Source: Phycisphaerae bacterium (GTDB lineage Bacteria > Planctomycetota > Phycisphaerae > UBA1845). Taken from it: a DNA stretch of 64,000 nucleotides. Shown here piece by piece: positions 16,604-59,876 of this stretch. Location of the stretch: the NCBI GenBank assembly GCA_029260055.1, contig JAJDDX010000424.1:20586-84585 (forward strand), in the 5' to 3' direction. Position 1 is the first letter of the stretch. The number at the start of each line of letters is the position of its first letter. The translations under genes and the position numbers were made by a program. The notes under the pieces are model-generated. The model saw only the letters and a list, made by a program, of their open reading frames with translations. It was not told where the DNA came from and made no database searches.

Positions 16604-16607
16604 GTCT

Positions 16608-21654: not shown

Positions 21655-21672
21655 GCGGCGGCGCCGGGGCAC

Positions 21673-29118: not shown

Positions 29119-29223
29119 CGTTTCTCGTTTCCTTCTTTCCGGATCGTATCGTGCAGTAGCCACACTCAAGTCTCAGGCCGTAGTTTTTACCATGTCGGGC
29201 AGCCCGCCATCCGTTTCGACGGG

Positions 29224-30159: not shown

Positions 30160-30262
30160 CGCCTCTCGTTCCTTTCCTTCTGGATCGTAATGTGCATTCG
30201 CCACACGAACTCTCGGGCCGAAGTCCCTCCATGGCGGGTGCCCCACCATCCGTCTCGGCGCG

Positions 30263-31252: not shown

Positions 31253-31354
31253 CGATCTTCGGTCCCTTCCTTCAGAGCGGTCATGTGCATTCGCGGCACG
31301 ACATTTGGGCCGTAGTTCTTCCATGGAGGGCGTCCCATCATCCGTTTCGGTGCG

Positions 31355-34300: not shown

Positions 34301-35257
34301 GAATGCGGGTGAATCGTCAGCGATGAACGCTGCGGTTCCTTGGGTTCCTTCTATCACGAAGGCATCACCGCAGAAGCGCCGGAGTTCAGCCGTTACGGTG
34401 ACGGTGCCGCCGCCGGTGGCGACGCCGCCGATGTCGTAGCTGCTCAGGACGCAGTTATCGATGATCAGTTCGACATCGTCCACGATCCACCAGTTCGGAG
34501 GGAAGACCCACCGCATTCCGCCTAGATTGGCGTTGTAGTAAGCGAGGAACTCTCGGTCGAAGGGCGGTTCGCAGTAGACCTGGGTGTGGAAGCCGGCGTA
34601 GAGCGTCGTGCCGGCGAAGCTGGCGCTGCAGGGTTCGAACGGGATGTCATAGATGTTCGACGTGAAGCCAACCTCGGCGGGGGTACCAACGACCCAGCCG
34701 GGGCCCGCGCGGTCGAACGAGACACCGAGCCACACCGTATTGTCAATGGCCACGGGGCTGGCCGACAGGTCAAGCAGTACGGAATGAAGTCCGTCATCGG
34801 CGATCGCCAGGGAGCCGTCGGTGCCTGGCAGGACCACGCCGCCGCCGTTCGGGCAGCCGTCGTACAGCGCGAAGCTGACGGTGAAACCGGGGCCGGTGCC
34901 GTCGCCGCCGCCGGCGACGAGGAACTCGTATGCCTTGACCGGGCAGCCGTTCACCGCCTCGGTGTGCAGATCGTCCGCCACCAGGGTGTCCGGCGGAAGC
35001 TGCAGGAAGACGTCCGGCGGCGGTGAATTGGCGTAGACCGGATCGTCAAGTATCAGGCCTCCCGCCGAGCCGGCCGAGCCCGTTGTCGCGTTGTAGTAAT
35101 GTCTTTGAGGTTCGAGTCCCGGTGGGATCGAACGGAGCACAGCCGCAGAAGCCTGTGCTTGGTTTGCCGGGCTGCCGTTGTCCGCGGTGATGTCTCCGTT
35201 GGCTGCGAGGCCCGCCGTACCGATGACCCAAATCAGCGCACTTGTGACCGAAACCAT
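31355..35257 (-). CDS. Large secreted Cys-rich multidomain surface protein ending in the same module and IPTL-CTERM-like anchor
   Basis: GACC and CxxxxxxCxxDxDCP motifs, CCDTVCDMDPFCC, two PPC-like domains (VW...DTC...CNDD), two blocks of four 19-aa Cys/Asp repeats, VPAVSQWG. Alternative GTG starts at 35278 and 35284. Confidence 0.8.
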   Translation of the reverse strand: MVSVTSALIWVIGTAGLAANGDITADNGSPANQAQASAAVLRSIPPGLEPQRHYYNATTGSAGSAGGLILDDPVYANSPPPDVFLQLPPDTLVADDLHTEAVNGCPVKAYEFLVAGGGDGTGPGFTVSFALYDGCPNGGGVVLPGTDGSLAIADDGLHSVLLDLSASPVAIDNTVWLGVSFDRAGPGWVVGTPAEVGFTSNIYDIPFEPCSASFAGTTLYAGFHTQVYCEPPFDREFLAYYNANLGGMRWVFPPNWWIVDDVELIIDNCVLSSYDIGGVATGGGTVTVTAELRRFCGDAFVIEGTQGTAAFIADDSPAFARFDFPGGVALNTGAMPLWVAYKFDRAASSIFSGQAALGYTDDFFGLQDGSDCNLYWFGGNPWSGFAITVRCLGNSPTGACCDLSTPGAGTPREFCREVQEIACQGSTVRFESGAKCPNTCSITSDECTVDADCPIACSLTDDACVVDADCPVGETCTRTQICTDLGVSFDPTCGTAACCTPPNSPFGETCVDLDETTCESHLDDDGHAAVWQPGQFCGQGQQDCISWICRFAEGSCDLANGTVGCNVPTCCDTVCDMDPFCCIWEWDSTCATRAVAVCTDLPVGNDTCFGPTPDSGAYMLNECSVSLDQCFDDTDCPAGQSCEANGATTLDNRGATTDASEGFCCHRAGAGTQGFGGVWAKFTASEASARVDTCGANNLPAWDALLQVFRATDHTDEQAACNSLVPIGCNDDSDWISCQDGQAAICLYDLNIGETYYVLLGAKAEYAAGEYRLTVTSPATAPCSPPGDVPVNNTCDTATIAATSSNFDLNGATAQCPGEACAVDLTGDVWFEYTAPVAGSVTFDTCSVPQGDTILLVYDGGDCPATGDRLITCNDDALDGSCGVGSSSTIDVEAQRTYLIRVGARDGDAFTGELHVSGLVVDCQPNGIPDDQDIAQGTSEDCQLNDVPDECDIAQGSSDDCQANGVPDECDIAQGSSTDDNGDGVPDECQIEPTPAVMTMEVVEVNGSAAGLPSDDLVANQGDLLKVEFYLQDWAPLLANTHQLRLDGASLTSSGTGAILLAELPCTTDGDCYGESVCDGNLCDCSGSVYVEATDSRPDHLFFGRDAIIVGDCTSNLAQQGSYLVGGTLLTPPWGVPDQGTPKYIGTMFLTVDENADGTFTLGLMQDPDQTFLVDSDDQIIPLDWSATLTLRVGANDCNGNRIPDDQDIAQGTSHDCQANGVPDECDITQGASEDCQANGTPDECDIASGSSGDDDGDGIPDECQTVSVPAVSQWGLIVLALLLSIAAKTRSATCRRAHA

Positions 35258-35560
35258 GGGCTTCTCTCCGTGGTGCACCTGCACCTTCCTCCGTTAAGTA
35301 TCTGTATGGTACGAACGCCGATCTGAATGAACCGCGATCACTCAGGTACGTGCTGCAGCTTCGGGCCCACCCCAGGAATGCCCCTTAGAACAAGAGGTAA
35401 CGTGGACGATCCCCACCGCGACCTGCGATTATACCGTGTCGGCATTCGGCAGGTCAAGTCCAAACCCGGACTTGCAGGCCCCTGTTCGGCGCACTGTGGG
35501 ATCGGGGCCACGTCTGGGGTATCAGGAGGTCGGTGCGGGCTCTTTGCCGCCTATTCAGGG

Positions 35561-38500
35561 CTACTTCCGGGATGCCGTTCGCTTGTCGACCGGGCAGATC
35601 ACTCGGAAGCCGACGTTGAATACGGGCTGCCAGTCGGGGTAGTGCAGTCGGAATGCGGAGCGGCAGCGTTTCGGGCGGTCTCGCCAGGATCCACCGCGGA
35701 CGACGCGCTCACCGTTGGCCGCATTGTTGTTGCGGTCATCGTCGGCGTAGGGGTACGGCTGGTAGGTGGACTGTGTCCACTCGGCCACGTTCCCGTGCAT
35801 GTCGTGCAGTCCCCAGGCATTTGGCTGAAACGTGCCAACGTTCGCTACGACTCTGTGGCCGTCGTCGAAGCGGGCGTCCTTGGGTAAGTAGTCGGAGCGC
35901 GGGTCGGGGTCTTTGACCGGTTGGGGGTTCACGCCCTGCACCACGAGCTTGCTGGTCGATGCGTCCGCCATGTTCGCGAGCTTGGAGAAGTCCGTGTCGA
36001 GGCCGCCATAGCTCAATCGCGTAGCCGTGCCGGCGCGGGCTGCGTATTCCCATTGGGCTTCCGTCGGGAGAGCGAACGACTCGCCCGTCTCTTTCGAGAG
36101 CCACTGGCAGAACGCTCTGGCCTGACGCCAGGTGACGCGGATGACGGGCTGGTCAGGCAGGTTGGCCGGATAGCCGGGCGTCGTGTGGTCTTTCCATCGC
36201 TGGTCGTAGTAGCCGCTGTCGTGTTCTGCATCAAAGCGGATGAATTGCCGGTTGGTCACTTCCAGTGTGCCCATCCAGAAGGGTTCGTCGATGGTCACGG
36301 CGCTTGTCGGTGCTTCGTCGGCGTCTCCGTACTCATCCCCCATGACATACTGCCCGGCCGGTATGAGCACCAGGTCCATGGTCACGCCATCGCCGAGGTC
36401 GAGTGTTCGTCGTGTGGCGGGGCCGGCTGCCTGTTGCCGGCGCAGGGCTTCGTCGGCGTCGAAGGGCCAGCCGTTGCATTGCACGGCTGCTGCCGGTTTC
36501 CTGTTGACCGGCGCGGGTGTGACCGGCTCGGCCTTGGGCGTGTCAATCCGTACGATCGCCTCGGGATCATCCTCGATGTTTGCGAAAAGCTTGCGGTAGC
36601 GAAGGCGCATCGCATAGGACTTTTCGAATCCGCGCGAGCCCACATGCTCGGTCCACGTGCCGTGGTCCGGGACGTTGAAGTCGATCCACGTGATGAGGCG
36701 ATCCCATTCCACCTGGCTGAGCTGCACGTTGTGGTGACCCTTGCGGAGCATTTGAACGAGTTCGCTCGTGTTGGCGCGGAATTCGGCCGGGCGCAACAGA
36801 TGATAGTCGCTCTCGGGTCCGGGGCGGCGCACGTAGGGGTGCAATTCGAGATAGCTCTTGGTGAACCCGCCCCAGCCGCGAGCGTTGTCGGCGAAGTTGG
36901 GAAGGGCGGGCTCGTCGTCACGCGGGTTGCCGTCGTGGCACGCGACACACTTTCGGTCGAGCACGGGCTGAACCTCGCGCGTGAAGCTGAAACCGCGTGT
37001 CGGTCCGTGCCACGGCGCGATCTGACGTGGTCGATAGGCGGTGGCGACCGTCCGTCGATTCGGAACGGTGGTGTTCGGTGCCTCGTGGCAGCCGACGCAC
37101 GAGAGCATCTCACCCGGCATCGCGGTGAACCAACTGCGCATGAGTTGCAGCGCCTCGCCGCGATCGTTGATCGGTTGGACAGCGAGCGGCGTATTCGCCG
37201 GAACGGTGAACAGTGCCGATCCGTCGGCCTCGACCGGGACCGTGCCGAGGATGCGCTTCACATCCCAGCCGCCTTCCACCGCTGCGTGTTGGTGGCCGCC
37301 GATTTCGTTGTAGCCGTAGTGCCATTCGATGACGCGCAGCGCCTTGATGTCGCCGCGCGGTACACCTGCGAGGCCGGGGCCGTTGTAGACGTCGGCCATG
37401 TAGACGGTCGCATCGGTGCGGTCGGGCCGGACCCTGTCGGGAATGACGGGCGGGCGCTCGCGCTTGACGAGCGGCACCGGTTCGAGCAGCGCCTGGCCGC
37501 GCTCTTCGTGGAGCAGGACCATGTTGTCGAAGACGTCGACGAGATAGATTCCCCAGTGGCTATCCGGCGCGGGCTTGCACGAGACCAGGAAGTACTTTTC
37601 GCTGAGCGGCCACGGTTGGAGGAACTTCGGCCACGAGTCGTCGACGAGTTGATCGACGATGATCGGTTCGACCTTCTTGCCGCGGCCCGGGATGCGCTGA
37701 ACGACGCCGTCGGCCTCGTGCGTGCCTTTTGCGGTGTCCAGGACGATCAACTCTCCCATGCGGGGAACGCCATGATGGCCGGAGACGACGGTTACGAGTT
37801 TTGATGGATGGCCGGGGATCGGTCGCGAGTAGAAGATCGAGTTGGGCCAATAGGAGTTCGACCCGTAGACGGGCATCTGGCTTGTGCCGTCGGGGTTCAT
37901 GCGCATGAGCAGCCGCGTGAAGTAGTGTGGCGTGTCGGTGTATTCCCACCGGGCGAAGAGGACTCCGCCGTCGGGCAGCACGGTCGGGTGCCAGTTGTGA
38001 TCCTGGTCGAAACAGAGCTGGCGGACGTTTTTCCCGTCATCACCCATGATGTAGAGGTTACTGACGGCGTCGGCGCCGCCGACGCAGGGGACGCCCTGGC
38101 ACACCGCGGCGGAGGCGAAGACGATGCGGCCATCCGGCAGATAGCAGGCGTCGTAGTTGTCGGTTTCGGTGATGGGGCCGCTGGTGACTTGGCGCAGGTT
38201 GCCGCCGTCGATACCGATCTCGAACACCTGCCAGCGATGATCGTCATCGAGGGATGAGAACAGCAAGCGGTCGGCGTCGAAGTGGAGGTCGACATCGCCT
38301 ACGAAGACATTCCGCTCGGGTTTGTAGAGCGTGTCGAGTTGCGGGCGATCGCGAAAGGAGGACATGCGGCAGATGGCGTCGTCGTAGCCGGTTCGCGGGA
38401 GTGCACAATTGCCTTGCCAGTTCTGCGGCAGGCCGGTTCGTGGTCCGGTGTTGGCTCGTCTCACGATGAGTAGCTCGTCGAAGTCGAGCAGCGGGTTGGC

Positions 38501-39511
38501 TAGAAGCACCTTGCGCTGGATTGCGATGATGCGCTCGGCACGATCGAGGACCTCGTCGGTCCCCTGTTCGAGTTCGGCTCGGACGGCGGCGGCCTTGGCT
38601 TCGATACCCTCGAGTTGACGGCGGTAGTCGGCTGCTCCGGCATATCGATCGCCGAAGGACTCGGTCAGGTCGGCGGCTGCGAGCCGCAGCGCTTCCGCAT
38701 CGAACAAGCGCATCTGAACTCTCGCTCTGGCGAGCCGATCGCGCCGTAAGCGTGCCTTGTCGAAGAGCGTGATCCACTGCGCGTCTTGGATGGGTTTCTG
38801 ATCGCCGACGAGCTGTGCAAGCCGTGTGCGCATCGGTTTTGCGGCGGCGCCGATCTGATCGAGCAAGCCGGAGACGATCCTACCTGCGTGCCGCAGATCA
38901 TCGGCCGGCGTCGCATACGTCGCGTCTTCCGTAAGCGGCTTGAACGACGAATGGGGTGACGTCGTGCTCTGCGTGGCGAACTTGTTCAGGGCGATGTTGG
39001 TGTCCGGGGTGCCGGTGCCGAAGATTTGCACTTCGTCGAGGTGGAACATCGTTTCTTCACGAAGCCAAAGACGCACGTAGCGGGCTGATTCACCGTCGAG
39101 CGCAACGGTCAATGGCTCGCCCTTTTCGTGGCCATAGAACTCCGAGCCGTCGTGACGGTAGACCTCATTCCATGTGTTGCCATCGTCGGAGAGGTGTACG
39201 GTGATGGTGCGGGCACGCTCCCAGAGACCGACGCGGTTGAAGATGACGATGCGGTCGAGCGGGTCCGATTCGGCAAGGTCCACCTGCCACCAGGGGGCGA
39301 GCTCCTTGGACGTGTGGAATGCGAAGCCGCCGTCGATCACGCCGTCGACACCCCCGGCTGCGTCGCGGGAGGGGTCCTTCTCGTATGCCTTGCGTATCGC
39401 GTGGGTCCATGCGGCGCGTGCGTCGGCGCTCGGGGCATTCTGCGCGGTGGCGATGCCGGTTGTAGCCAGGATCAACAATGTCGTAAGCTTGGTAATGGCT
39501 CTCATGGTCAT
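35561..39511 (-). CDS. Discoidin (F5/8C) + hydrazine synthase alpha-like propeller/di-heme region + SUMF1/FGE-like domain protein
   Basis: Signal peptide; PWWQVDL...IVIFNR; propeller motifs YDACYLPDGRIVF and ARWEY; LGTVPVEADGSALFTVPANTP...MRSW...PGE; hemes CVGCH and CVACH; FGE-like LPTEAQWEYAARAG, NAWGLHDMHGNVAEW and RGGSW. Confidence 0.85.
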   Translation of the reverse strand: MTMRAITKLTTLLILATTGIATAQNAPSADARAAWTHAIRKAYEKDPSRDAAGGVDGVIDGGFAFHTSKELAPWWQVDLAESDPLDRIVIFNRVGLWERARTITVHLSDDGNTWNEVYRHDGSEFYGHEKGEPLTVALDGESARYVRLWLREETMFHLDEVQIFGTGTPDTNIALNKFATQSTTSPHSSFKPLTEDATYATPADDLRHAGRIVSGLLDQIGAAAKPMRTRLAQLVGDQKPIQDAQWITLFDKARLRRDRLARARVQMRLFDAEALRLAAADLTESFGDRYAGAADYRRQLEGIEAKAAAVRAELEQGTDEVLDRAERIIAIQRKVLLANPLLDFDELLIVRRANTGPRTGLPQNWQGNCALPRTGYDDAICRMSSFRDRPQLDTLYKPERNVFVGDVDLHFDADRLLFSSLDDDHRWQVFEIGIDGGNLRQVTSGPITETDNYDACYLPDGRIVFASAAVCQGVPCVGGADAVSNLYIMGDDGKNVRQLCFDQDHNWHPTVLPDGGVLFARWEYTDTPHYFTRLLMRMNPDGTSQMPVYGSNSYWPNSIFYSRPIPGHPSKLVTVVSGHHGVPRMGELIVLDTAKGTHEADGVVQRIPGRGKKVEPIIVDQLVDDSWPKFLQPWPLSEKYFLVSCKPAPDSHWGIYLVDVFDNMVLLHEERGQALLEPVPLVKRERPPVIPDRVRPDRTDATVYMADVYNGPGLAGVPRGDIKALRVIEWHYGYNEIGGHQHAAVEGGWDVKRILGTVPVEADGSALFTVPANTPLAVQPINDRGEALQLMRSWFTAMPGEMLSCVGCHEAPNTTVPNRRTVATAYRPRQIAPWHGPTRGFSFTREVQPVLDRKCVACHDGNPRDDEPALPNFADNARGWGGFTKSYLELHPYVRRPGPESDYHLLRPAEFRANTSELVQMLRKGHHNVQLSQVEWDRLITWIDFNVPDHGTWTEHVGSRGFEKSYAMRLRYRKLFANIEDDPEAIVRIDTPKAEPVTPAPVNRKPAAAVQCNGWPFDADEALRRQQAAGPATRRTLDLGDGVTMDLVLIPAGQYVMGDEYGDADEAPTSAVTIDEPFWMGTLEVTNRQFIRFDAEHDSGYYDQRWKDHTTPGYPANLPDQPVIRVTWRQARAFCQWLSKETGESFALPTEAQWEYAARAGTATRLSYGGLDTDFSKLANMADASTSKLVVQGVNPQPVKDPDPRSDYLPKDARFDDGHRVVANVGTFQPNAWGLHDMHGNVAEWTQSTYQPYPYADDDRNNNAANGERVVRGGSWRDRPKRCRSAFRLHYPDWQPVFNVGFRVICPVDKRTASRK

Positions 39512-39564
39512 CTCACTATTTCGCTCGCCGGCAATCGAGCCTATGAAGCAGTTGTCGCTTCGTA

Positions 39565-41382
39565 CTACAAAGCGCGCAGATACGCGATCAGGTCTTCAAA
39601 CTGTGGCTCGGTCAGGTGCGATGTAATGCCGTGTCGGTCGTCCTTGTTGCATCCGAAAAGGACATCACGCAGTTTCGCGGCCGAGCCGTCGTGCAAGTAA
39701 GGGGCGGTTCGCCACAGCTCCGCGAGCGTCGGCGTGTCGAACGTTTCGGTCCGGTCGAGTTTGCCGCGCGTGCCCACATCATATTGTTTGAGATCAGTAT
39801 ACAACGGTGCGGGGTGGCAGCGCGCGCAACCTGTGGTCTCCTGCTCGAACACCTCGCGACCGCGCTGAATCTGTGCGGCGAGCGGGCCGGTGTCGCCGGC
39901 GAAGGGGCTCTTCACCGGTTCGAGCGAGCGCAGGTAGGCGCGGACATCTTCGAGATCGGCGGTACTGATCTGCTGGAACGCGATGTGCGTAAACCCGGCT
40001 GCGGAGGCCACTTCCATCGATGCACGCGCGCCGCGCGACATAACCGGCGGCGTCTTGTGGCTCCATACGAGGGAGCGTACGTTCTTGGGATTGCCGAGTC
40101 CGTCGTTGAGCAGGTCCCAGTTCATACCGTCCGCGCGCGTATCGGGATGGCACGTCGCGCAGCTAAGCCATGTTTGTTTGGAGTATGTCGCGTCGTGGAA
40201 GATCCGTTCGCCGCGCCGTTCGGCATCGGGTTCGGGTTGGTTTTGGAGCGTCACGACGGTGCGCAGGGCGGCGTTGTGTGCATCCAGCAGAAGCACCGTG
40301 CCCGAAAAGTACATCGCGACAGCAAGCGTCTTTCCATCAGGCGAGACGGCCAAGCCACGCGGCCCTTTGCCCGGCAAAGGCGTTCGCCGAATCGCGCCGG
40401 CACGGGAGAGCGCCGCTATGTCGTCTTCCAATCCCTTGCGTTTGTCTGCGAGCAGCGCCGATAGGCCGGGGAGGTCGATGGTCGCGAGCTGGTGCGTGCC
40501 CGAGAGGGTCACCCACAGCCGGCTTCCGTCGGGTGCGACGGCGACGCCCCACGGGTCGGCTGCGCCCTCGAGCAGGTAGTCGAGCAGTACCGTCCCCAGG
40601 CGTCGGTGCGACTTCAAGTCGATCACACTCAGTGCGTTCGTGTTGACCCAGCCGCGCTCGATCTGCGTGGTCGGTAGGTTGGTACGGCCGAGCGTATGTA
40701 CGACGTACGCCCGCCTACCATCCGGGTCGATGGCGACGCCGCGTCCGCAAGACGAGCCGGACGGGAGACGAATGTGGGCGAGTTCGGCACGTAGTTCGAG
40801 GTCGACCAAGGTGACGACGGCCGATTGGCCTGGCCTATCCGCACGACCTTGGGGAATCAGGTGGCTGACGACCGCAAGCGACTCGTCCGGTGAGATCGCC
40901 ACCGCGAACGGCTGGCGCGACGTGGGGACGACCGTTCTTCGTACGGTGCTCCCGAGCTTCGCCACGGTGACGCCGTCTCTCGCATAGTCGGCGGCGACGA
41001 GCATGTTATGGTTCGGGGCGAATGCGATCCCTCGCAACCACAAGCCCGCTTCGAATCGGCGCGTGACCGAACCTTTGTCCGCGTCGATGTCGGCGATCGT
41101 GCCGACGCGAGATTCCGCCACGTACAGGTGCGAACCGTCGGGAGCCCACGTGATGCCGGCGGGGCGGTCATCCACTGCGCACTCGTGCAGCACGTTCGCT
41201 CCAGCGACGCCGATCAGTGTTACGACGCCGGCTGTGTGGTCCGAGACGGCGAGCATGGCGCCGTCCGGCGAGAAAGCCAGATCGATCGGGGAGCGGTAGG
41301 GGGGATCGGCCCATGCCGAGGTGCCCGCGCACAATACGCAGGCCATAAGAGCGGCACATCGACGGGTGCGGGCGTCCGGCAT
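39565..41382 (-). CDS. YVTN-type beta-propeller fused to a di-heme cytochrome c peroxidase-like domain
   Basis: Signal peptide; repeats AFSPDG, TWAPDG, AISPDE, AIDPDG, AVSPDG; hemes CATCH and CARCH; TPTLAELWRTAPYLHDGSA. Confidence 0.87.
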   Translation of the reverse strand: MPDARTRRCAALMACVLCAGTSAWADPPYRSPIDLAFSPDGAMLAVSDHTAGVVTLIGVAGANVLHECAVDDRPAGITWAPDGSHLYVAESRVGTIADIDADKGSVTRRFEAGLWLRGIAFAPNHNMLVAADYARDGVTVAKLGSTVRRTVVPTSRQPFAVAISPDESLAVVSHLIPQGRADRPGQSAVVTLVDLELRAELAHIRLPSGSSCGRGVAIDPDGRRAYVVHTLGRTNLPTTQIERGWVNTNALSVIDLKSHRRLGTVLLDYLLEGAADPWGVAVAPDGSRLWVTLSGTHQLATIDLPGLSALLADKRKGLEDDIAALSRAGAIRRTPLPGKGPRGLAVSPDGKTLAVAMYFSGTVLLLDAHNAALRTVVTLQNQPEPDAERRGERIFHDATYSKQTWLSCATCHPDTRADGMNWDLLNDGLGNPKNVRSLVWSHKTPPVMSRGARASMEVASAAGFTHIAFQQISTADLEDVRAYLRSLEPVKSPFAGDTGPLAAQIQRGREVFEQETTGCARCHPAPLYTDLKQYDVGTRGKLDRTETFDTPTLAELWRTAPYLHDGSAAKLRDVLFGCNKDDRHGITSHLTEPQFEDLIAYLRAL

Positions 41383-41435
41383 GAATCGACTCCTCCGCTA
41401 CTGACTTCGATGCACAGCCTTCCGGGCTCGAACGC

Positions 41436-42317
41436 TCACGATTGCTTCAGGTCGTTATAGAGTTCGAGCGCTGCTTCCGGCGACATTTGGTCGTGAACGA
41501 CACCGCGCACGGCCTGGATCATCGCTTTCGGGTCGTCCGCCTGGAAGATGTTGCGCCCCATGTCGACGCCGGCTGCCCCTTGGTCGATCGCGTGATGGGC
41601 CATCTCCAGGGCGTCGAGTTCCGGCAGTTTCTTGCCGCCGGCGATCACGATCGGGACCGGGCAGCCCGCGGTCACCGTCTCGAACCCCTCTTGGCAGTAG
41701 TATGTCTTGACGACCTGAGCCCCGTTTTCCGCGAGCACGCGTGACGCCATGCCGAGGTACCGCGCGTCGCGCGTCAGTTCCTGGCCGACGGCTGTGACGC
41801 CGAGTGTGGGAATGCCGTAGCGATTACCCGCTTCAATCATCCTGCAGAGGTTGCGGATCGTCCTTGCTTCGAACTTCTTGTCGCCGATGGCCACCATTAC
41901 CGCCATCATCGAGGCGTTCAGACGAATGGCGTCTTCGATTTGAACGCCGACACATTCGTCGTTGAGTTCGGTCAGGACGGTCGACCCGGCGGAGCACCGA
42001 AGCGAGATAGGTTTGCTACACGTCGGCGGAATGCACGTACGCAGCACGCCTCGCGAGCACATGAGGCAGTCGGCATGTTCGATCAGCGGCACGATCGAAA
42101 CGTCGATGCGCTCGAGCCCCGATGTGGCCCCCATGATGTATCCGTGGTCGAATGCCAGCATGACGGTCTTTCCGGATTTCGGATCGAAGATGCGCGACAG
42201 GCGGTCCTTCATGCCCCAGTCGTAGCTGTGAGCGCCTTTTAGTTCGGAGGTCGGATTCGCAGCCGGGGCTCCGACTCTGAAGGCGTTCGCGGAGACGTTG
42301 CCGTTTGCGTCAGGCAT
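41436..42317 (-). CDS. lsrF: LsrF-type class I aldolase-fold thiolase
   Basis: [61 protein letters not shown]. Confidence 0.9.
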
Positions 42318-42948
42318 TCGTGAATCCCTCCGTAAAGCCGGCGAAGATGAGCGACATCGAGGCGGCACCGGGGTCGACGTGACCGATCGAGCGCTCGCCG
42401 ATATGCCGTGCTCGTCCGAACGCAGCTACCATCTGTTTCGTCGCTTCGGCGCCGGCGGCCGCGGCGTGTGCTCCGGCGTTCAGCGCGTCCGCTATTGATC
42501 GGCCTTCGTTAGCCGCGGTACGGATTGCGTCGGTGGCCGGCACCAGGGCGTCCATCATGGTCTTGTCGCCCGGTTTGGCCTTGGTGTTCAGTTGCAGGTT
42601 GGCGACACCCGCCTCCAGCATGCCCGCGAATTCCGCGGCGTCCAGCGCGGTATCGCCGGCCTGTTCGCTCATGCCCAGGAACCAGGAGCCGTAAAGTGGG
42701 CCTGTCGAGCCGGCGTCCGTACCCATCGCAGCCCAGCCGATGTCCGCCAGCAGTGAAGCGAGCTTCTTGTCGCCGTGGTTGTCCATGGTTCGAGTGATCG
42801 CATCGGCGACTTTGCCCATGGCCGTGCCGTGGTCGCCGTCGCCGGTGGCTGCGTCCAGGGTCGAGAGGGTCTGCTTGGCGTTGCGCACGCGCTCGGCCGC
42901 GGACGCCCACATGCGCCTCATGACATCATAATCGACATGGTCGGCCAC
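42310..42948 (-). CDS. dhaL: Dihydroxyacetone kinase family subunit L
   Basis: LDAATGDGDHG, GSTGPLYG, GDKTMMDALVP, GRAR, GHVDPGA. Confidence 0.9.
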   Translation of the reverse strand: MADHVDYDVMRRMWASAAERVRNAKQTLSTLDAATGDGDHGTAMGKVADAITRTMDNHGDKKLASLLADIGWAAMGTDAGSTGPLYGSWFLGMSEQAGDTALDAAEFAGMLEAGVANLQLNTKAKPGDKTMMDALVPATDAIRTAANEGRSIADALNAGAHAAAAGAEATKQMVAAFGRARHIGERSIGHVDPGAASMSLIFAGFTEGFTNA

Positions 42949-42965
42949 GGCACCGGTACCTCAGT

Positions 42966-43967
42966 TCATCGCCCGACCCAATAGGGTGCGTTGGCCGGGG
43001 CCTTGAGCAGTTGCTCCAGTTCGTCGTCGAGTTTGGCGACGAACATCTGGAACCCGCCCATCTCCTGGACCGTAAGGTACTCGCCCACCATGGAATGAGC
43101 TATGTGCATGCCTTTCGACTCGACGATCTGCATGACCCGGCGGAACACGACGAAAAGCTCCATCTGAGTCGTGGCGCCGGCGCCGTTGAGCATGACGAGT
43201 AGTCGATCGTCGGCTTTCGCCTTGATCGCCAGCAGCAACTGCGTGAGCATCGTCTCAGCGGTCTCATCGGCGGTCATTACTTTCGAACGCCCGGTGCCCG
43301 CTTCGCCGTGCTGCCCCATGCCGATTTCCATCTCGTCTTCAGCCAGTTCGAAGATCTCCTGGCCCGACTGCGGATGCGTGGCTGGTTTGAGCGCGACGGC
43401 CAGCGTGGCCATGTTGTCGTTCAGACGCTTCGCGACTGCGTAGACCTCATCGAGGCTCTTGCCCGCTTCGGCGGCGGCTCCGGCGACCTTGAAGATCGAA
43501 AGGCACCCGACGAGGCCGCGGCGATCTTCAGCCGGCGCGTCGGCGCCGGGCGCGATGTCTTCGTGAGTCAGGAGCATTTTGACCTTGATGCCTTCTTTTT
43601 CCACCATCTGCAGCGCCATGTTGCCGCTCATGACGTCGCCGGCGTGGTTGAGGACCACGAACAGGATGCCCACGTCGCGCTTCAGGAGTCGTAGCGCGTC
43701 GACTACCTTGATCGGACCCGGCGCCGCGAAGATGTCGCCGACGACCGACGCGTCCAGCATGCCCTCGCCGACGAAGCCGCTCAAGGCCGGTTCGTGTCCC
43801 GCGCCGCCGAGCGTGACGATCGCGACCTTGCTTTCATCCTTCGGGGTCGCGCGCATGACGATCCTGTCGGACTCGAGTCGGACCAACTGTGGGAACGCGC
43901 CACAGTAGCCTTCGAGCAGTTCACCGGTCAGTTCGTCCGGGTCATTGATGAACTTCTTCATCGCCAT
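42966..43967 (-). CDS. dhaK: Dihydroxyacetone kinase family subunit K
   Basis: MKKFINDP, GGAGHEPALSGFVGEGMLD, RRGLVG, EIGMGQHGEAG. Start at ATG 43967 or 43961. Confidence 0.9.
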   Translation of the reverse strand: MAMKKFINDPDELTGELLEGYCGAFPQLVRLESDRIVMRATPKDESKVAIVTLGGAGHEPALSGFVGEGMLDASVVGDIFAAPGPIKVVDALRLLKRDVGILFVVLNHAGDVMSGNMALQMVEKEGIKVKMLLTHEDIAPGADAPAEDRRGLVGCLSIFKVAGAAAEAGKSLDEVYAVAKRLNDNMATLAVALKPATHPQSGQEIFELAEDEMEIGMGQHGEAGTGRSKVMTADETAETMLTQLLLAIKAKADDRLLVMLNGAGATTQMELFVVFRRVMQIVESKGMHIAHSMVGEYLTVQEMGGFQMFVAKLDDELEQLLKAPANAPYWVGR

Positions 43968-43996
43968 GGGAAATGTCCTCCAAGCGGGCCGAGGGG

Positions 43997-44311
43997 TCAG
44001 GCCATCTGCATCAGTTCGATCGGTGCGCCTTCTTCGATGATAAACGCGACAGTCACGCCCTCCATGGGCGAGAACGGCTCCATCAGGACCTCTTTGCCAA
44101 CCATCTCCGCTTCCAGGTCGCCGACCTGATAGGCGATGTGCGGAAGGGCCTGCAACATCCTCGGCATAGTGCTGCCCGTTTCGAAGCGGAGCCATTCGAT
44201 CTTGTTGGGGCTGGCTGCTACGTCCGTGATATAGAGCTTGGCCTCTTCGAGATAGGTCTCGTTCTCGTGCGTCTCGCTAGACGGAATCCCGATGTGATGA
44301 AACGTACGCAT
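43997..44311 (-). CDS. Small VOC/glyoxalase-like protein
   Basis: FHHIGIP, IEWLRF, PHIAYQV and PIELM give the His/Glu/His/Glu metal-ligand pattern. Confidence 0.7.
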   Translation of the reverse strand: MRTFHHIGIPSSETHENETYLEEAKLYITDVAASPNKIEWLRFETGSTMPRMLQALPHIAYQVGDLEAEMVGKEVLMEPFSPMEGVTVAFIIEEGAPIELMQMA

Positions 44312-44337
44312 GATTCGCTCCTCTTATCGGCGTGGCT

Positions 44338-45030
44338 CTAGAAGACCACGGATTCGTTGGTGAACTCGAGTGCGTCGTCGTAATGCGGCGTGCCGTACTC
44401 AGCCACGATCGCTCCGGCGGGTCCGGCGATCATGAAGTGCGGTGCCGTGACGCGGTTCAGCGTGCCGATTTCGCCTTCGCTGAGCGTGAGGCAGCGGCGC
44501 GCGGTGATGGCGTCGGCTTTCAACTGGCTTTCCGGAAGTCGGCACGGCAAGTCGTCGGTCGGTTCGCCTTCTCCGAAGGTATGGATCATGCCGTGGCGCA
44601 CGTGCCACGATTCCATCTTCGCCGGGCCTTCGGAACTGATGGTGTGGCGGTGTTCCACGATCATCTGGCCCGGCAGCAAATAGATCTCGTGGGCGAAGTA
44701 GTGGTGCTCCTTGTTGTTGATCCAGAAGATGCCGGCCATGCCCACGTTGGCGAAGTCGTTCTGCGCGAAGTCGCTCGTCCAGAACTCGTCGGTCTTCAGG
44801 ACCGCCGGAATTGGGTAGGCGAAGCGCTCCATCATGTCGTAGTAGGCTTGGAAGGCCTTCTTCTTGTTGAAGACGCCTTCGTCGTAGAAGTCGCTGCTGA
44901 GCAAGGCGGTGCTCCGTTTGCTGTTTGTGAGTGAGTGATGTCCGTGGCTGCAGCCGGTGACCAAGGCCGCACCCGCGACGGCCGCCGTCTTCAGGGCGCC
45001 GCGTCTTGTGACGTGATCCGCATGGTCCAT
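44338..45030 (-). CDS. D-lyxose/D-mannose isomerase-like cupin with Tat lipoprotein signal
   Basis: TRRGALK twin-arginine motif, lipobox VTG-C; cupin motifs LLPGQMIVEHRH...KMESW, PHFMIAG...EY. Confidence 0.72.
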   Translation of the reverse strand: MDHADHVTRRGALKTAAVAGAALVTGCSHGHHSLTNSKRSTALLSSDFYDEGVFNKKKAFQAYYDMMERFAYPIPAVLKTDEFWTSDFAQNDFANVGMAGIFWINNKEHHYFAHEIYLLPGQMIVEHRHTISSEGPAKMESWHVRHGMIHTFGEGEPTDDLPCRLPESQLKADAITARRCLTLSEGEIGTLNRVTAPHFMIAGPAGAIVAEYGTPHYDDALEFTNESVVF

Positions 45031-45087
45031 GATTCCGTCTCCGTGAAAGCGCGTCGCGGGGCGATCGGTTCGAATGCCGCGTCGAGT

Positions 45088-45103
45088 GATCTACATGTAG
45101 AAC
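45088..45103. promoter_or_regulatory. Palindromic operator 1 (probably IclR)
   Basis: GATCTACATGTAGAAC, a near-perfect inverted repeat just downstream of the leftward -10 box. Confidence 0.6.
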
Positions 45104-45110
45104 GATGATC

Positions 45111-45139
45111 TATATAGCAGGCATGTGTAGCGCTGTAAA
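45111..45139 (-). promoter_or_regulatory. Sigma70 promoter of the sugar operon
   Basis: Minus strand TTTACA-N17-TATATA with TG at the extended -10 position. Confidence 0.55.
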
Positions 45140-45203
45140 CCAAATCGACGTTTCGTCGCTGCCGCCCGCCGACAGACCCGCAGCGAAAGCCTGATCCGGG
45201 CGC

Positions 45204-45231
45204 TTGACGTGACCGGATGGTGGGCTACGAT
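45204..45231 (+). promoter_or_regulatory. Sigma70 promoter of the IclR gene
   Basis: TTGACG-N16-TACGAT. Confidence 0.5.
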
Positions 45232-45240
45232 TGGATGGTA

Positions 45241-45256
45241 GTTTGATATATAGAAC
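45241..45256. promoter_or_regulatory. Palindromic operator 2 (IclR autoregulation)
   Basis: GTTTGATATATAGAAC, an imperfect inverted repeat sharing the right half TAGAAC with operator 1. Confidence 0.55.
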
Positions 45257-45279
45257 TCCAGGGGCGAGCCTGACTCCAA

Positions 45280-46071
45280 ATGCAAGAGACCGACGAGACC
45301 GGCACGAAGTACAGTGTTCCCAACTTGGAGCGAGCCCTGTCGATTCTCGAACTCCTCGCCGCGCATCCGGGCGGTTTGAAACTCGCGGAGATCACGCAGC
45401 GGCTCGGCTATCCCAAGAACAGCGTCTTTCGGGTCACGACGACGCTGTGCGATCGCGGTTACCTCACGCGGGACGAGGCGACGAAGTGTTTCAGATTGAG
45501 CCGCAAGCTCCTGGCGATGGGGCATCAGGTCTTGTCGGAGAGGCCGATCGTTCCGGCTGCGATTGATGTCATGTACGAATGCCGCGACGCGCTGAAAGAG
45601 ACGGTTTTGCTCGGCACGATCGTCGAGGACGGTTGCATCGTGCTCGAACAGGTGCTCGGTACGCACCCTTTCAAGTTTTCTATCGATATGGGAGCGCGCA
45701 TCAACCTTCACGCCAGCGCGCCGGGCAAGGCGATGCTGGCCTACCTGCCGGAGGCGGAGCGCGAGGGTCTGGTTTCGCGCCTCAAGCTGACTCGCTTCAA
45801 CGAGCGGACGATCACGTCGAAGAAGGCGCTGGCGACCGAGCTTCAGTATGTGCGTGAATGCGGCTTCGCACTGGATCGTGGAGAGGAACTGCACGGGATC
45901 GTCTGTGTCGCCGGGCCGGTGCTGAATCAACACGGTTATCCGGTCGCTTCGATGTGGATCACCGGCCCGGCGGATCGCGTGCCGGAGGACCTGTTCGCCC
46001 AAACCGGAACTCAGATTCGGCGATACGCGGACACGATTTCGGCCCGGCTCGGGTATCACCCGGCACCGTAG
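45280..46071 (+). CDS. IclR-family transcriptional regulator
   Basis: YSVPNLERALSILELL, HTH PKNSVFRVTTTL, ETVLLG, HASAPGKAMLA, GFALDRGE...CVAGPV. Confidence 0.95.
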   Translation: MQETDETGTKYSVPNLERALSILELLAAHPGGLKLAEITQRLGYPKNSVFRVTTTLCDRGYLTRDEATKCFRLSRKLLAMGHQVLSERPIVPAAIDVMYECRDALKETVLLGTIVEDGCIVLEQVLGTHPFKFSIDMGARINLHASAPGKAMLAYLPEAEREGLVSRLKLTRFNERTITSKKALATELQYVRECGFALDRGEELHGIVCVAGPVLNQHGYPVASMWITGPADRVPEDLFAQTGTQIRRYADTISARLGYHPAP

Positions 46072-46301
46072 CGCAAGTCGGTTCCCCGTTCGTGCTCCGG
46101 TTTACGCCGCATGGCCTCGGACGGCTCCGATCGCCGAATTCCGTTAATTCACTTGCCTTTCCATACGCAACTTGCCACGATAGAGGTATGCGCCGATGCT
46201 CCTGAGCGGTGGAATTGCCGCGGCGGAAGGTATATGAGGTCGACCGCGCGGTTCGCACGCGGGGCATTCGGCAAAGCGGGGTCCTCTTGGGGGTGTCAAA
46301 A

Positions 46302-48611
46302 ATGCCTGGTTACCTTTCTCGAACGCGCCGGTCGGCGATGCTGTCCGCGTTGGCCTTCAGCTTCATCTTCGCGAATCTTGCGATAGGTTCCGATGGGCAC
46401 GGACCACCGGGCACGCGCGACAACCGAATACCCGCCTGCGGCAAGTTGCGATCGCTCATGAGTCGGCCTGACGTGCGTCCGCTGGAGCCACCGGACCCGG
46501 CGTACCTCGAGACTCTGGCTGACACCGATGTCCTGCACTACGTGCTGGATATTGAAGTCAGCGCACTGAGTCCCGGCGGCAGCACCTGTTGGCTTGCGGG
46601 AAGTAACGTCATCTCCATCCAGAGCAAGTCGGCTGCCCTGAGCGAGTTCTCTATTCGGTTGCGGAATCAGTACAGCGTCGATGCTGCGTACATAGACGGC
46701 GCGACGGCTGTGACGGTGACGACCACGAGCGAGACGACGCGCGTGGTGACGCTTGACCGTGTGTACGGGCTCGACGAGACCTTCACGCTGACCATCGAGT
46801 ACTCCGGGAATACCGTGCACCTTCCCACGGCTCACGGCTCCATCACGGTGGATACCCAGCCGGACGGCAGGCCGGTCGTCGCCACGCTTTCTCAGCCCTA
46901 TTACGCTTATTCCTGGTGGCCGGTGAAGGAGGGCGATGTGGGCGCACCCGGCGATCACGCCGACAAGGCCACGATGGAGTTTGCGATCACGGCGCCTGAC
47001 ACGATGAGCGTTCCCTGTAACGGCCTGCTTCAGGGGGTCGACGTGCTGACCGGGAATCGAAAGCGCCATCGTTGGGCGAGCGACTATCCGATCATCCCTT
47101 CGCTCGTGAGTTTTGCCGCGACTGAATACAACACGTGGACCTCGAGCTATTCCCACCCGGGCGGAACGATGCCGGTCGAGTTCTACATCTATCCCGCCTG
47201 GGATAACGCGAGCAACCGCGCCAAATGGGAAAAGTGCGTGGACATGATCGGGGTCTACGCGTCGCTCTTCGGCGAGTATCCGTTCGTCGATGAGAAGTAC
47301 GGCATCTACAACTTCCCGTGGGCCGGCCTGGAGCACCAGACGATGACCGCCCAAGGCGCTGAAGGCGGGTACACCGGCTTCGGCGAGTATCTGACCGCCC
47401 ACGAACTCGCCCACCAGTGGTTCGGCGATGCGGTAACGTGCAAGACCTGGAACCATATCTGGCTGAACGAGGGGATCGGGTCGTACGCCGACGCCCTGTG
47501 GGAGGAGTTCAAGTCCGGCGGCAGCCTGGCGGACCTACAGGACACGATGGCGTGGAGACGGCAGTACATCGGGACCAACAGCAGCAGCGTCTACGTGCCG
47601 GACATAGAACTCGGGGATGAGGGGGAGATCTTCAATCCCGCGACCACCTACTACAAGGGTTCGTGGGCGATGCATATGCTCCGCCGCATGATGGGTGACG
47701 AGGCCTTCTTCACGGCCTTGCGGGCCTATTTCGCGGCGTACGAGTACAAGGCTGCGACGACGGAGGACCTCCAGGCCGTCTTTGAGGGCTACTATCCGGG
47801 CGGCGACCTTAGCTGGTTCTTCAGCGAGTGGATCTACGGGCAAGGGTCTCCCGTCTACAGTTGGGGGTGGGAGGCCGTGGACGTGGGTGGGCGGCATTAC
47901 GTGTTGCTGTCGATCGATCAGACGCAATCGGGCGCCTACCCGCGGTTCACCATGCCGATCGACATCGTCGTCGATGGCACGCGCCACGTCGTGTTCAACG
48001 ACGCCGATCCGGAGTACTTCGTCATTCCCGTGGCGTCGGCGCCGTCGACCGTCCAGTTCGACCCAGACGTGTGGATCCTTCGGGGTAGCGCTGGCCAGGC
48101 GAGCTACGTCAGCGGCCCGCCGACGATCGTCGAGACATCGCCGGCTCCCGGCGAGCAAGTGGCGCCCGAAGCGATGGTCGACAGCGTGACCATTACGTTC
48201 CACACGACGGTGAACCTGACTGCGTCGGATCTGTCGCTTGTCGGCGTGAACACGGGGTCGAAGGCGTTTACGATCGCCTCCGGTACGAACGTCAACCCGG
48301 TCGTGTTGCAGTTGGATTCGCCACTCGGGGTCGACACGTACACACTTACCGTCACCGATGGCGTCTCGAGCTCGATCAGCGGGAGACCGTTGGACGGCGA
48401 GATCATCGACTCCGACGACGCAGCGTCGCTTCCCTCCGGTGACGGCGTTCCCGGTGGTGATGCGATCATCCGGTTCGTGGTCGTGGGTAGCGCCATACCG
48501 GCTGTGTCCACGTGGGCTCAAGTCGTGATGACACTGCTGATCCTGACAGCCGGCACGCTCGTACTTTCGAAGGAGCCGACGCGACCGCTTGCGGCGGCAC
48601 AGCCCGATTGA
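46302..48611 (+). CDS. Secreted M1-family zinc aminopeptidase with Ig-like domain and IPTL-CTERM-like anchor
   Basis: DVLHY, AGLEHQT, HELAHQWFG-x-WLNEG (HExxH...E), YYKG; C-terminal IPAVSTWAQVVMTLLILTAG. Confidence 0.9.
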   Translation: MPGYLSRTRRSAMLSALAFSFIFANLAIGSDGHGPPGTRDNRIPACGKLRSLMSRPDVRPLEPPDPAYLETLADTDVLHYVLDIEVSALSPGGSTCWLAGSNVISIQSKSAALSEFSIRLRNQYSVDAAYIDGATAVTVTTTSETTRVVTLDRVYGLDETFTLTIEYSGNTVHLPTAHGSITVDTQPDGRPVVATLSQPYYAYSWWPVKEGDVGAPGDHADKATMEFAITAPDTMSVPCNGLLQGVDVLTGNRKRHRWASDYPIIPSLVSFAATEYNTWTSSYSHPGGTMPVEFYIYPAWDNASNRAKWEKCVDMIGVYASLFGEYPFVDEKYGIYNFPWAGLEHQTMTAQGAEGGYTGFGEYLTAHELAHQWFGDAVTCKTWNHIWLNEGIGSYADALWEEFKSGGSLADLQDTMAWRRQYIGTNSSSVYVPDIELGDEGEIFNPATTYYKGSWAMHMLRRMMGDEAFFTALRAYFAAYEYKAATTEDLQAVFEGYYPGGDLSWFFSEWIYGQGSPVYSWGWEAVDVGGRHYVLLSIDQTQSGAYPRFTMPIDIVVDGTRHVVFNDADPEYFVIPVASAPSTVQFDPDVWILRGSAGQASYVSGPPTIVETSPAPGEQVAPEAMVDSVTITFHTTVNLTASDLSLVGVNTGSKAFTIASGTNVNPVVLQLDSPLGVDTYTLTVTDGVSSSISGRPLDGEIIDSDDAASLPSGDGVPGGDAIIRFVVVGSAIPAVSTWAQVVMTLLILTAGTLVLSKEPTRPLAAAQPD

Positions 48612-59726: not shown

Positions 59727-59876
59727 AGGCCAGACTCACCGTTGCCGTTCAGTGGGTCGGCCATTCGTCCCCGCTCCGGTTTGACGCATCCTTCACGCCG
59801 ATTATGCTCGATCCCGACGACTTCGACCGTCTCGAAGGCGCTTGCACCTACGTGGAACGAGGCAGGAGTGCTTGCC

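Follow-up and report, generated by a model that had tools for sequence, protein, structure and literature searches.

A stretch of 64,000 nucleotides (nt) from the genome of a Phycisphaerae bacterium, referred to here as the window, contains a seven-gene operon in which two hydrazine synthase (HZS)-like haem proteins are encoded together with sugar-type genes ending in lsrF. The genes, read from the open reading frames (ORFs) of the window, are all co-oriented and run along the minus strand from 45030 to 35561. They encode a cupin with the fold of D-lyxose isomerases, a small VOC-fold protein, the kinase subunits DhaK and DhaL, an LsrF-type thiolase, a fused HzsBC-like protein, and an HzsA-like protein, and they lie beside the gene of an IclR-family regulator. 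A first-pass annotation had proposed that this IclR-paired operon links HZS-like cytochromes to a sugar-type pathway that ends in LsrF. The proposal is well supported: the same genes recur in shuffled orders and in four phyla, and the cupin co-occurs with an HzsBC-like gene in eight of eight genomes. On this comparative evidence, the linkage is more than a local accident, and the module is facultative, with its parts separated in some relatives. The sugar genes and the HZS-like genes very probably share one task.

Two sets of loci were compared. In what follows, L-numbers denote compared loci, G-numbers denote sampled genomes of the same phylum, and G000 is the window's own genome. The first set was anchored on the HzsBC-like gene and comprised the best 80 of 594 loci from species-representative genomes. 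An HzsA-like neighbour is present in 53 of these 80 loci, and cupin, VOC, dhaK, dhaL, and lsrF are present in two, L034 (Bryobacteraceae) and L079 (Verrucomicrobiales). The second set was anchored on the cupin gene and comprised the best 80 of 478 metagenome loci, 36 of which are shorter than 5 kb. Counting any match, these 80 loci contain VOC (36), dhaK (30), dhaL (28), lsrF (23), HzsA-like (20), HzsBC-like (11), and IclR (10) genes, and the VOC gene lies directly 3′ of the cupin gene in 33. Among the 33 cupin loci of at least 8 kb, dhaK/dhaL/lsrF genes occur in 19, HZS-like genes in 16, both in 11, and neither in 9. For the 14 loci of at least 18 kb, the corresponding counts are 10, 8, 7, and 3. 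The same gene set is preserved in at least seven distinct orders and orientations, as selection for proximity predicts and common descent of one arrangement does not. In a quick tree (MAFFT and FastTree, no outgroup) of 87 HzsBC-like proteins, the 13 that are module-linked fall in at least six separate places.

Co-occurrence was also assessed in 300 genomes of the same phylum, where the cupin (E < 1e-30) is found in 8 and the HzsBC-like gene (E ≤ 1e-40) in 42. Planctomycete-specific PSD/PSCyt domains encoded in these same-phylum genomes agree with Planctomycetota as the phylum. All 8 cupin genomes carry the HzsBC-like gene, as do 34 of the 292 others (base rate 14%); the Fisher p is 8e-8, with the caveat that the eight genomes represent five families and kin are non-independent. 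Thirteen weaker cupin matches in this sample (E 1e-11 to 1e-19) were excluded before the count. The two of them that were examined were rejected as module members, being mannitol-dehydrogenase fusions, with a ketohexokinase beside one, and thus a different system. The whole module is contiguous in G088 and G055, and G212 has an HzsA-like gene along with the cupin and the sugar genes. The window's own genome carries one copy each of the cupin, dhaK, dhaL, and lsrF genes, with no second copy of any sugar gene, beside one of its three HZS-like pairs. With three such pairs in 7.6 Mb, the probability of chance adjacency is well under 1%.

The four phyla with the full set include Bryobacteraceae, Verrucomicrobiales, and two cultured carriers, Aureibacter tunicatorum and Parabacteroides distasonis. 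The cultured carriers, both Bacteroidota, emerged when annotated plasmid records were searched for relatives of the VOC protein; matches in Gemmatirosa, Burkholderia, and the remaining organisms of this search were left out. A VOC-like gene on Klebsiella plasmids was rejected as a module member because its gene context is unrelated. Plasmid pAT4 of A. tunicatorum NBRC 107587 encodes, in order, an HzsA-like protein, a glycoside hydrolase (GH) of family 2, a hypothetical protein, butyrate kinase, TonB, a hypothetical protein, DUF1097, VOC, DhaK, DhaL, LsrF, a c-type cytochrome (HzsBC-like), an FkbO_N/RidA-like protein, the cupin, a Mala_s_1-like protein, and an HzsA-like protein. P. distasonis TSDC17.2-1.1 (NZ_OY725748.1, labelled plasmid 3) has thirteen co-directional genes. 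These encode IclR, an HzsBC-like protein (annotated "YncE family"), an FkbO_N/RidA-like protein, the cupin, an HzsA-like protein with NPCBM and formylglycine-generating enzyme (FGE) domains, CcsA, VOC, DhaK, DhaL, LsrF, a Mala_s_1-like propeller, an MFS transporter, and GH130. CcsA is a cytochrome c biogenesis protein, and its gene lies between the HzsA-like gene and VOC-dhaKL-lsrF (L174, 6535-8982) in an anaerobe expected to be low in c-type cytochromes. This position is hard to explain unless the haem and sugar genes serve one purpose.

The layout of the operon is given in Table 1. From cupin through VOC, dhaK, dhaL, lsrF, and HzsBC-like to HzsA-like, the successive intergenic distances are 26, 29, 17, -8 (overlap), 53, and 53 nt. 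Coordinates and scans agree with the first-pass description of seven co-oriented genes with gaps of about 55 nt or less and no obvious terminator. A terminator scan of the operon gave no convincing site (13 sites against 10.9 expected, the background level), and the junction gaps fold no better than shuffled sequences. This structure suggests that the seven genes are expressed as a single transcript. The operon probably ends at the 276-nt gap downstream of the HzsA-like gene, which contains a promoter-like TTGACC-18-TATAAT (11/12) on the minus strand at 35457-35428; promoter-like sites, too, were at background level in the scan, and folding of the gap (z -1.46) is not distinctive. The next gene downstream encodes an IPTL-CTERM Cys-rich protein of a large paralogous family that does not recur with the module. 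A minus-strand ORF of 322 amino acids (aa) at 45091-46059 was rejected as an isomerase because it has no family match and lies opposite iclR; it is a shadow ORF of this high-GC gene and could pass for the first gene of the operon.

Table 1. Coordinates of the operon, its regulator gene, and the flanking non-coding regions in the window.
Feature	Position	Strand	Basis or remark
IclR-family regulator, 263 aa	45280..46071	+	both Pfam IclR domains
Divergent control region, 249 nt	45031..45279		candidate operators
D-lyxose/D-mannose-isomerase-like cupin, 230 aa, Tat signal, lipobox VTGC	44338..45030	-	structure match, TIGR01409
Small VOC-fold (glyoxalase/epimerase-like) protein, 104 aa	43997..44311	-	predicted fold
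DhaK-type kinase subunit, 333 aa	42966..43967	-	Pfam Dak1
DhaL nucleotide-binding subunit, 212 aa	42310..42948	-	Pfam Dak2
LsrF-type class I aldolase-fold thiolase, 293 aa, ATG at 42317	41436..42317	-	NF006081
HzsBC-like fusion (beta-propeller + dihaem MauG/CCP-like domain), 605 aa, signal peptide	39565..41382	-	5c2v_B/5c2v_C
HzsA-like dihaem protein, 1316 aa, signal peptide	35561..39511	-	Pfam HZS_alpha and further domains
276-nt gap 3′ of the HzsA-like gene, promoter-like site for the next gene	35285..35560		promoter scan

The haem proteins are encoded by adjacent genes 53 nt apart and have four CXXCH motifs in total. The HzsBC-like protein matches the beta (5c2v_B, E 1.1e-30) and gamma (5c2v_C, E 8.6e-29) subunits of hydrazine synthase and has CXXCH at 408 and 519. 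Its NCBIfam scores are 182.7 against a cut-off of 1250 for hydrazine_BC, 120.9 against 560 for beta, and 110.8 against 625 for gamma. The HzsA-like protein consists of an F5/8-type-C lectin module, a propeller region, an HZS_alpha middle domain, and a C-terminal FGE-sulfatase domain. Pfam recognises F5_F8_type_C, HZS_alpha (106 bits), and FGE-sulfatase (166 bits), and CXXCH motifs lie at 805 and 855. The N-terminal module matches fucolectins and the middle domain matches 5c2v_A (E 5.5e-7), and the NCBIfam hydrazine_alpha score is 48.3 bits against a cut-off of 800. Judged by scores so far under the NCBIfam cut-offs, both proteins are HZS-like and not HZS. Exactly two CXXCH motifs are present in each of 14 module HzsBC-like ORFs and each of 12 module HzsA-like ORFs. 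The HzsBC-like protein has 3061 relatives at E ≤ 1e-10, and the carbohydrate module of the HzsA-like protein differs by lineage, being F5/8C in the window and NPCBM in P. distasonis. G000 encodes two more HZS-like alpha/beta-gamma pairs, on contigs C395 (about 13497-17855) and C386 (about 19102-22769), which are 25-29% identical to the HzsBC-like protein of the window.

Neither the cupin nor the VOC protein was assigned to a Pfam family, and both were therefore placed by predicted structure. The cupin gave no Pfam match at E up to 1 except the twin-arginine translocation (Tat) signal, and the PF07385 model missed it; TIGR01409 scores this signal at 22.3 bits against a cut-off of 16.7. Its model has a predicted local distance difference test (pLDDT) score above 90 over most of residues 41-230. 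The model matches 7nzp, 7nzo, and 2y0o with template modelling (TM) scores on the target (TMt) of 0.84-0.86 and a root-mean-square deviation of 2.1-2.2, at just 22-28% identity. By sequence, it matches the solved D-lyxose isomerase 7nzo (E 4.5e-12) with alignment of the EHRH, K-x-E, and H motifs. These metal-site motifs are invariant in 20 aligned family members, of which 17 have an N-terminal Tat or lipoprotein signal. At E ≤ 1e-5 the family comprises 1014 proteins, several of them named D-lyxose ketol-isomerase in public sources. The Tat and lipoprotein signals suggest that the cupin works outside the cytoplasm. Distant cupin relatives of 581-715 aa, fused to mannitol dehydrogenase, are encoded at L176 4742-8087 (G012) and L177 5194-6939 (G178), and the fusion in G012 adjoins a prokaryotic ketohexokinase. 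These fusions are a separate, cytoplasmic arrangement for conversion of mannitol or mannose to fructose.

The VOC protein (104 aa) has no Pfam match by sequence, and its model has a pLDDT of 96.5. The fold matches glyoxalase I (3hdp/2qh0; TM score on the query, TMq, about 0.7) and methylmalonyl-CoA epimerases. Residues H6, E39, H58, and E99 are invariant across 24 sequences and supply the His/Glu metal ligands expected of the paired beta-alpha-beta-beta-beta fold of the VOC superfamily. A second VOC-like gene, encoding a protein 46% identical to the 104-aa protein, is located away from the operon on contig C107 of G000 (20269-20568). The gene names given in the first-pass annotation were right, since the cupin has the D-lyxose-isomerase fold, the small protein has the VOC fold, and LsrF scores above its NCBIfam cut-off.

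Both kinase subunits are full-length. DhaK, with its start set at MAMKKFINDP, matches Pfam Dak1 at 352.9 bits (profile 1-312 of 313), and its TIGR02363 score of 322.8 bits is short of the equivalog cut-off of 406.25. DhaL matches Dak2 at 151.3 bits (profile 2-173 of 174) and exceeds the cut-off of TIGR02365 (156.7 bits against 138.3). A search for DhaM/EIIA-man (PF03610) gave no match in the window genome, which is 100% complete by markers; the control matched in 6 of 14 named genomes. Given the absence of DhaM from the genome, DhaKL is probably a two-subunit kinase that uses ATP.

LsrF scores 442.4 bits against a cut-off of 297 with NF006081 (3-hydroxy-5-phosphonooxypentane-2,4-dione thiolase), covering 1-291 of 291 model positions, and the match begins at residue 18 of the longer ORF. 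It aligns with E. coli LsrF (3gkf) over residues 10-291 at 356.7 bits, and the FDHGY, KTYY, and VDMGRN stretches are identical. We take the KTYY lysine to be the Schiff-base lysine of LsrF and FDHGY and VDMGRN likewise to have active-site roles. In other carriers, a Pta gene lies directly 3′ of lsrF (L126), an ORF with Pta and acetate-kinase matches lies likewise directly 3′ of lsrF (L087), and a butyrate kinase gene lies near lsrF (Aureibacter). Such neighbours fit a coenzyme A (CoA)-dependent thiolase better than an aldolase. LsrF would carry out a CoA-dependent cleavage that gives dihydroxyacetone phosphate (DHAP) and an acyl-CoA.

The regulator exceeds the cut-offs of Pfam IclR_C (124.3 bits) and HTH_IclR (59.8 bits). 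It reaches no specific NCBIfam equivalog, the best being BhcR (174.8 bits against a cut-off of 350). The 249 nt across which iclR diverges from the operon contain inverted and direct repeats. Among the candidate operators are a palindrome, GTTCTATATATCAAAC, at about 45240-45257, and the sites TCTACATGTAGA / TCTATATAG at 45087-45119. The core TCTA(T/C)ATATC(A/G)AAC is invariant in all four aligned iclR-cupin intergenic regions (mean identity 59%). The operator 14-mer occurs once in the window at up to three mismatches; at least one match was also obtained in 32 of 100 shuffles, so this occurrence is not significant alone. The promoter scan gave a weak candidate for iclR at 45204-45231. The module is likewise flanked by an IclR gene in L082, L083, L084, L087, L126, L149, L151, L160, L034, and P. 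distasonis, and the orientation of this gene relative to the module is divergent here and co-directional elsewhere. Gene position and the conserved palindrome suggest that IclR controls the operon.

These features are consistent with a two-compartment catabolic module, encoded in one operon beside its IclR regulator. The exported tetrahaem HZS-like pair, guided by its lectin module, would act with the exported cupin on a glycan-borne or free sugar. The product would be a small ketose or diulose, one end of which is a free hydroxymethyl ketone. Uptake into the cytoplasm would depend on a transporter encoded outside this operon; an MFS or DUF1097 protein may serve in other carriers. DhaK-family kinases use hydroxymethyl ketones, and DhaKL would phosphorylate this end of the product, probably with ATP. 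The VOC protein would then isomerise the phosphorylated product, in the role that LsrG has on the phosphorylated form of 4,5-dihydroxy-2,3-pentanedione (DPD). Finally, LsrF and CoA would cleave a 3-hydroxy-2,4-dione phosphate to DHAP and an acyl-CoA, most simply acetyl-CoA. Depending on the sugar, the acyl group would be acetyl (deoxypentose-type), glycolyl (pentose), or lactoyl (6-deoxyhexose). It is possible, if short of probable, that the haem pair performs the oxidising step. The step list of the first-pass annotation is altered in that isomerisation moves outside the cytoplasm, ahead of uptake, because the isomerase carries a Tat signal; the order of steps is itself conjectural. We infer every chemical step and substrate from the observed gene content, folds, export signals, haem motifs, and cross-phylum linkage and co-occurrence, and hold the mechanism as worded with slightly better than even confidence.

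Some of the genes around the module hint at carbohydrates as its target. Glycoside hydrolases GH31, GH78 (a rhamnosidase, L034), GH2, and GH130, together with RhaA (L100), are frequent neighbours. Other recurrent neighbours are FkbO_N/RidA-like genes (16 loci), sulfatases (13), Mala_s_1-like propellers (12), SDR proteins (10), separate FGE-domain genes (9), and DUF1097 membrane proteins (4; directly 3′ of lsrF in L119). In L087, an iclR-cupin-VOC-dhaKL-lsrF block has no HZS-like genes; at its flanks are genes for a GFO_IDH_MocA oxidoreductase of the Tat type and for a protein containing 3-keto-disaccharide-hydrolase domains. On this evidence, the periplasmic front end that would oxidise the sugar may be interchangeable. 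The closest relative of the operon, L084 (4467-8918), has GH31 and an FAD-dependent oxidoreductase with Golvesin_C just past iclR, and an additional FkbO_N/RidA-like gene between lsrF and the HzsBC-like gene.

Several other genes of the window were also noted. A sulfatase (Sulfatase and SGSH_C domains) is encoded at 59742-61457 on the plus strand, about 14 kb off the operon. Sulfatase genes lie near HZS-like genes in 13 of 160 compared loci, which may be chance, as the genomes are sulfatase-rich. The minus strand at 28183-35284 encodes Cys-rich secreted proteins of 1309, 353, 385, and 328 aa with IPTL-CTERM signals and repeated short acidic Cys motifs. Dozens of partial paralogues of the largest, the 1309-aa protein, occur genome-wide, at least eight of them on contig C183. 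An 1844-aa protein with thrombospondin type 3 repeats and a weak MtsC-like match (50719-56253, minus strand) and an 800-aa M1-family peptidase with a Big_5 domain (46209-48611, plus strand) do not recur with the module.

A number of observations weigh against a shared task and the mechanism set out above. The sugar genes are nearby in just 2 of the best 80 HzsBC-anchored loci, so most HZS-like pairs work without them. Neither partner is present in 3 of the 14 long cupin loci, and near-duplicate loci (L083/L084, L125/L130, L118/L120, and L156/L160) were kept in the counts. The quick FastTree phylogeny, without an outgroup, also limits what the separate tree places can bear. As for the prospect raised by the first-pass annotation that the two gene sets are unlinked in relatives, they are linked overall, but not everywhere. 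In L086 and L087, whose cupins are 68% and 65% identical to that of the operon, the sugar block has no HZS-like gene within 7-10 kb. In G179 and G289, the sugar block and cupin have none within about 9.6 kb, and HZS-like genes lie elsewhere. The operon itself has neither a transporter gene nor the FkbO/RidA-like and Mala_s_1-like genes often present in the module elsewhere. An exported sugar isomerase is unusual. Finally, the FGE-fold domain of the HzsA-like protein matches PorK/GldK and PvdO, its best named matches, as well as formylglycine-generating enzymes, and may therefore bind instead of catalysing.

The same genes could instead break down mannose, or a 6-deoxyhexose of the rhamnose/fucose type, by the classical sequence of isomerase, kinase, and aldolase, which we consider unlikely. 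The cupin would form the ketose and DhaKL the ketose-1-phosphate, which LsrF, acting as a class I aldolase, would split into DHAP and an aldehyde handled by the VOC protein. The HZS-like pair would just free or oxidise the glycan sugar. The D-lyxose/D-mannose isomerase fold of the cupin, the fucolectin-like module of the HzsA-like protein, and the resemblance of the VOC protein to glyoxalase I all agree with such a route. So do the neighbours GH130 (P. distasonis), GH78 rhamnosidase (L034), and RhaA (L100), and the distant same-phylum cupin paralogues fused to mannitol dehydrogenase and found beside ketohexokinase. However, the cupin is exported whereas the kinase is cytoplasmic. LsrF is far over the thiolase equivalog cut-off and matches E. 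coli LsrF over nearly its full length, and Pta, Pta/Ack, or Buk beside lsrF indicate an acyl-CoA product.

Scavenging of autoinducer-2 (AI-2; DPD) independently of Lsr is another explanation, and one to which we give little credence. The cupin and/or the VOC protein would make the 2,4-dione, DhaKL would replace LsrK, and LsrF would end the route, with the HZS-like genes accessory or unrelated to carbon flow. LsrF is at orthologue level with the E. coli enzyme, and its combination with a kinase and a small isomerase-like protein parallels LsrK-LsrG-LsrF. Other carriers have genes for acetyl-CoA handling close by, and a gut commensal has the module. Against this, the first-pass annotation had already reported lsrK, lsrG, and lsrABCD as absent, and the ORF scans of the window bear this out: neither an FGGY kinase, an LsrG-type protein, an Lsr-type ABC transporter, nor LsrR was seen. 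The carbohydrate-binding modules of the HzsA-like proteins and the glycoside hydrolase neighbours indicate glycans, and AI-2 scavenging leaves the strict co-occurrence with HZS-like genes unexplained.

There is a slim chance that the HZS-like pair acts on a nitrogen group instead of oxidising a carbon, for instance by removing or transforming an amino, hydroxylamino, or N-linked group of a sugar, with a RidA-type protein resolving the imine or enamine before DhaKL and LsrF. The enzyme to which the pair is homologous carries out N-N chemistry, and 16 loci, among them L084, L149, Aureibacter, and P. distasonis, have a cytoplasmic FkbO_N/RidA-type gene. GH130 enzymes, one of which is encoded in the P. 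distasonis cluster, include N-glycan-core phosphorylases. However, the operon in the window has no RidA-type gene, the genome elsewhere has one weak RidA-type match, and no hao/hdh-type anammox partner genes were seen among the window ORFs in general family scans. In addition, according to the accessible text of PMC12758564, such homologues do not conserve the key residues of hydrazine synthase, the catalytic ones at the alphaI and gammaI haem sites included. Lastly, that a sugar-cleavage operon and an unrelated periplasmic cytochrome pair are neighbours with no shared task would suit the 78 of the best 80 HzsBC-anchored loci that lack sugar genes and the relatives with the sugar block alone, but is very improbable given the same set in at least seven orders and four phyla, the 8/8 co-occurrence against a 14% base rate, the CcsA gene mid-cluster in P. 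distasonis, and the low chance of adjacency with three HZS-like pairs in 7.6 Mb.

A catabolic task shared by the HZS-like and sugar genes is relevant beyond this genome, as HZS-like proteins are widely encoded by bacteria other than the anammox group (HzsBC-like genes in 42 of the 300 genomes sampled from the phylum). Hagglund et al. (2025; PMC12758564) describe alpha and beta-gamma homologues of HZS that are encoded side by side in non-anammox bacteria and fall into clades I-IV. In the accessible text no function is given for these homologues, and the terms dihydroxyacetone, aldolase, IclR, and sulfatase have no occurrences. Elsewhere, hzs-like genes have been suggested to form a wider family with "alternative substrates" (PMC10732223). 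Full-text searches, with the supplementary tables of PMC12758564 outside their scope, found no report of a tie between DhaK/LsrF genes and HZS-like proteins, nor any account of the cluster in P. distasonis. The conserved link to a cleavage branch whose chemistry is known (kinase, isomerase, and LsrF) narrows the search for the HZS-like substrate to small keto-sugars, and the linked branch supplies DHAP and acyl-CoA as read-outs. Since the cluster is present in cultured P. distasonis and A. tunicatorum NBRC 107587, bench study is possible now. The system is relevant to the origin of hydrazine synthase, to the way gut Bacteroidales use carbohydrates, and perhaps to the turnover of AI-2.

A broader proposal can be framed, although we regard it as doubtful. 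HZS-like haem complexes may be widespread exported glycan or sugar enzymes, and the hydrazine synthase of anammox bacteria may later have been drawn from this stock. Alongside an exported cupin, these complexes would feed an undescribed route in which DhaKL and VOC stand in for LsrK and LsrG and LsrF releases DHAP and acyl-CoA, from soil and aquatic Planctomycetota to human gut Parabacteroides. Such a route might also consume AI-2, because it would pass through the 2,4-dione phosphate common to AI-2 breakdown.

Compared with known systems, the module is a new combination of known enzyme families and offers a first concrete, testable lead for the HZS-like family. The Lsr branch of enteric bacteria (LsrK, LsrG, and LsrF) is similar in its terminal LsrF, which here also follows a kinase and a small possible isomerase of about 100 aa. 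Unlike that branch, the operon uses two-subunit DhaKL instead of the FGGY kinase LsrK and a VOC fold instead of the LsrG fold. It also has IclR instead of LsrR, lacks LsrACDB, and adds an exported cupin and two haem proteins. As in hydrazine synthase (5C2V) and HZS-like pairs, a fused beta-gamma propeller/dihaem gene adjoins an alpha-like dihaem gene with HZS_alpha. However, the proteins of the operon are far under the hydrazine synthase cut-offs, and the alpha-like protein has an extra lectin module and an FGE-fold domain. The pair also differs from published HZS-like pairs in its linkage to sugar-cleavage genes, which go unmentioned in the accessible text of those reports (PMC12758564; PMC10732223).

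Among the enzymes of the cytoplasmic branch, DhaK and DhaL resemble the DhaK/DhaL dihydroxyacetone (and tetrulose) kinases in having full-length Dak1 and Dak2 on adjacent genes, with DhaL over the equivalog cut-off. They differ from the phosphotransferase system-dependent E. coli DhaKLM in that DhaK is under its cut-off and the genome lacks DhaM. Their substrate is probably a larger hydroxymethyl ketone. The cupin shares its fold and metal-site motifs with the D-lyxose isomerases of Thermofilum (7NZO) and B. subtilis (YdaE, 2Y0O). It departs from them in its low identity, in missing the Pfam model, and in carrying a Tat/lipoprotein signal. In the periplasmic 3-keto-glycoside route, a GFO/IDH/MocA-type glycoside 3-dehydrogenase and a 3-keto-disaccharide hydrolase carry out exported sugar redox before cytoplasmic catabolism. 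The module would share with this route an exported sugar redox step, and genes of this kind replace the HZS-like genes in L087. Unlike the NAD- or FAD-dependent proteins of the 3-keto-glycoside route, the redox proteins of the operon belong to the c-type haem HZS family, and the branch that they would feed ends in a thiolase.

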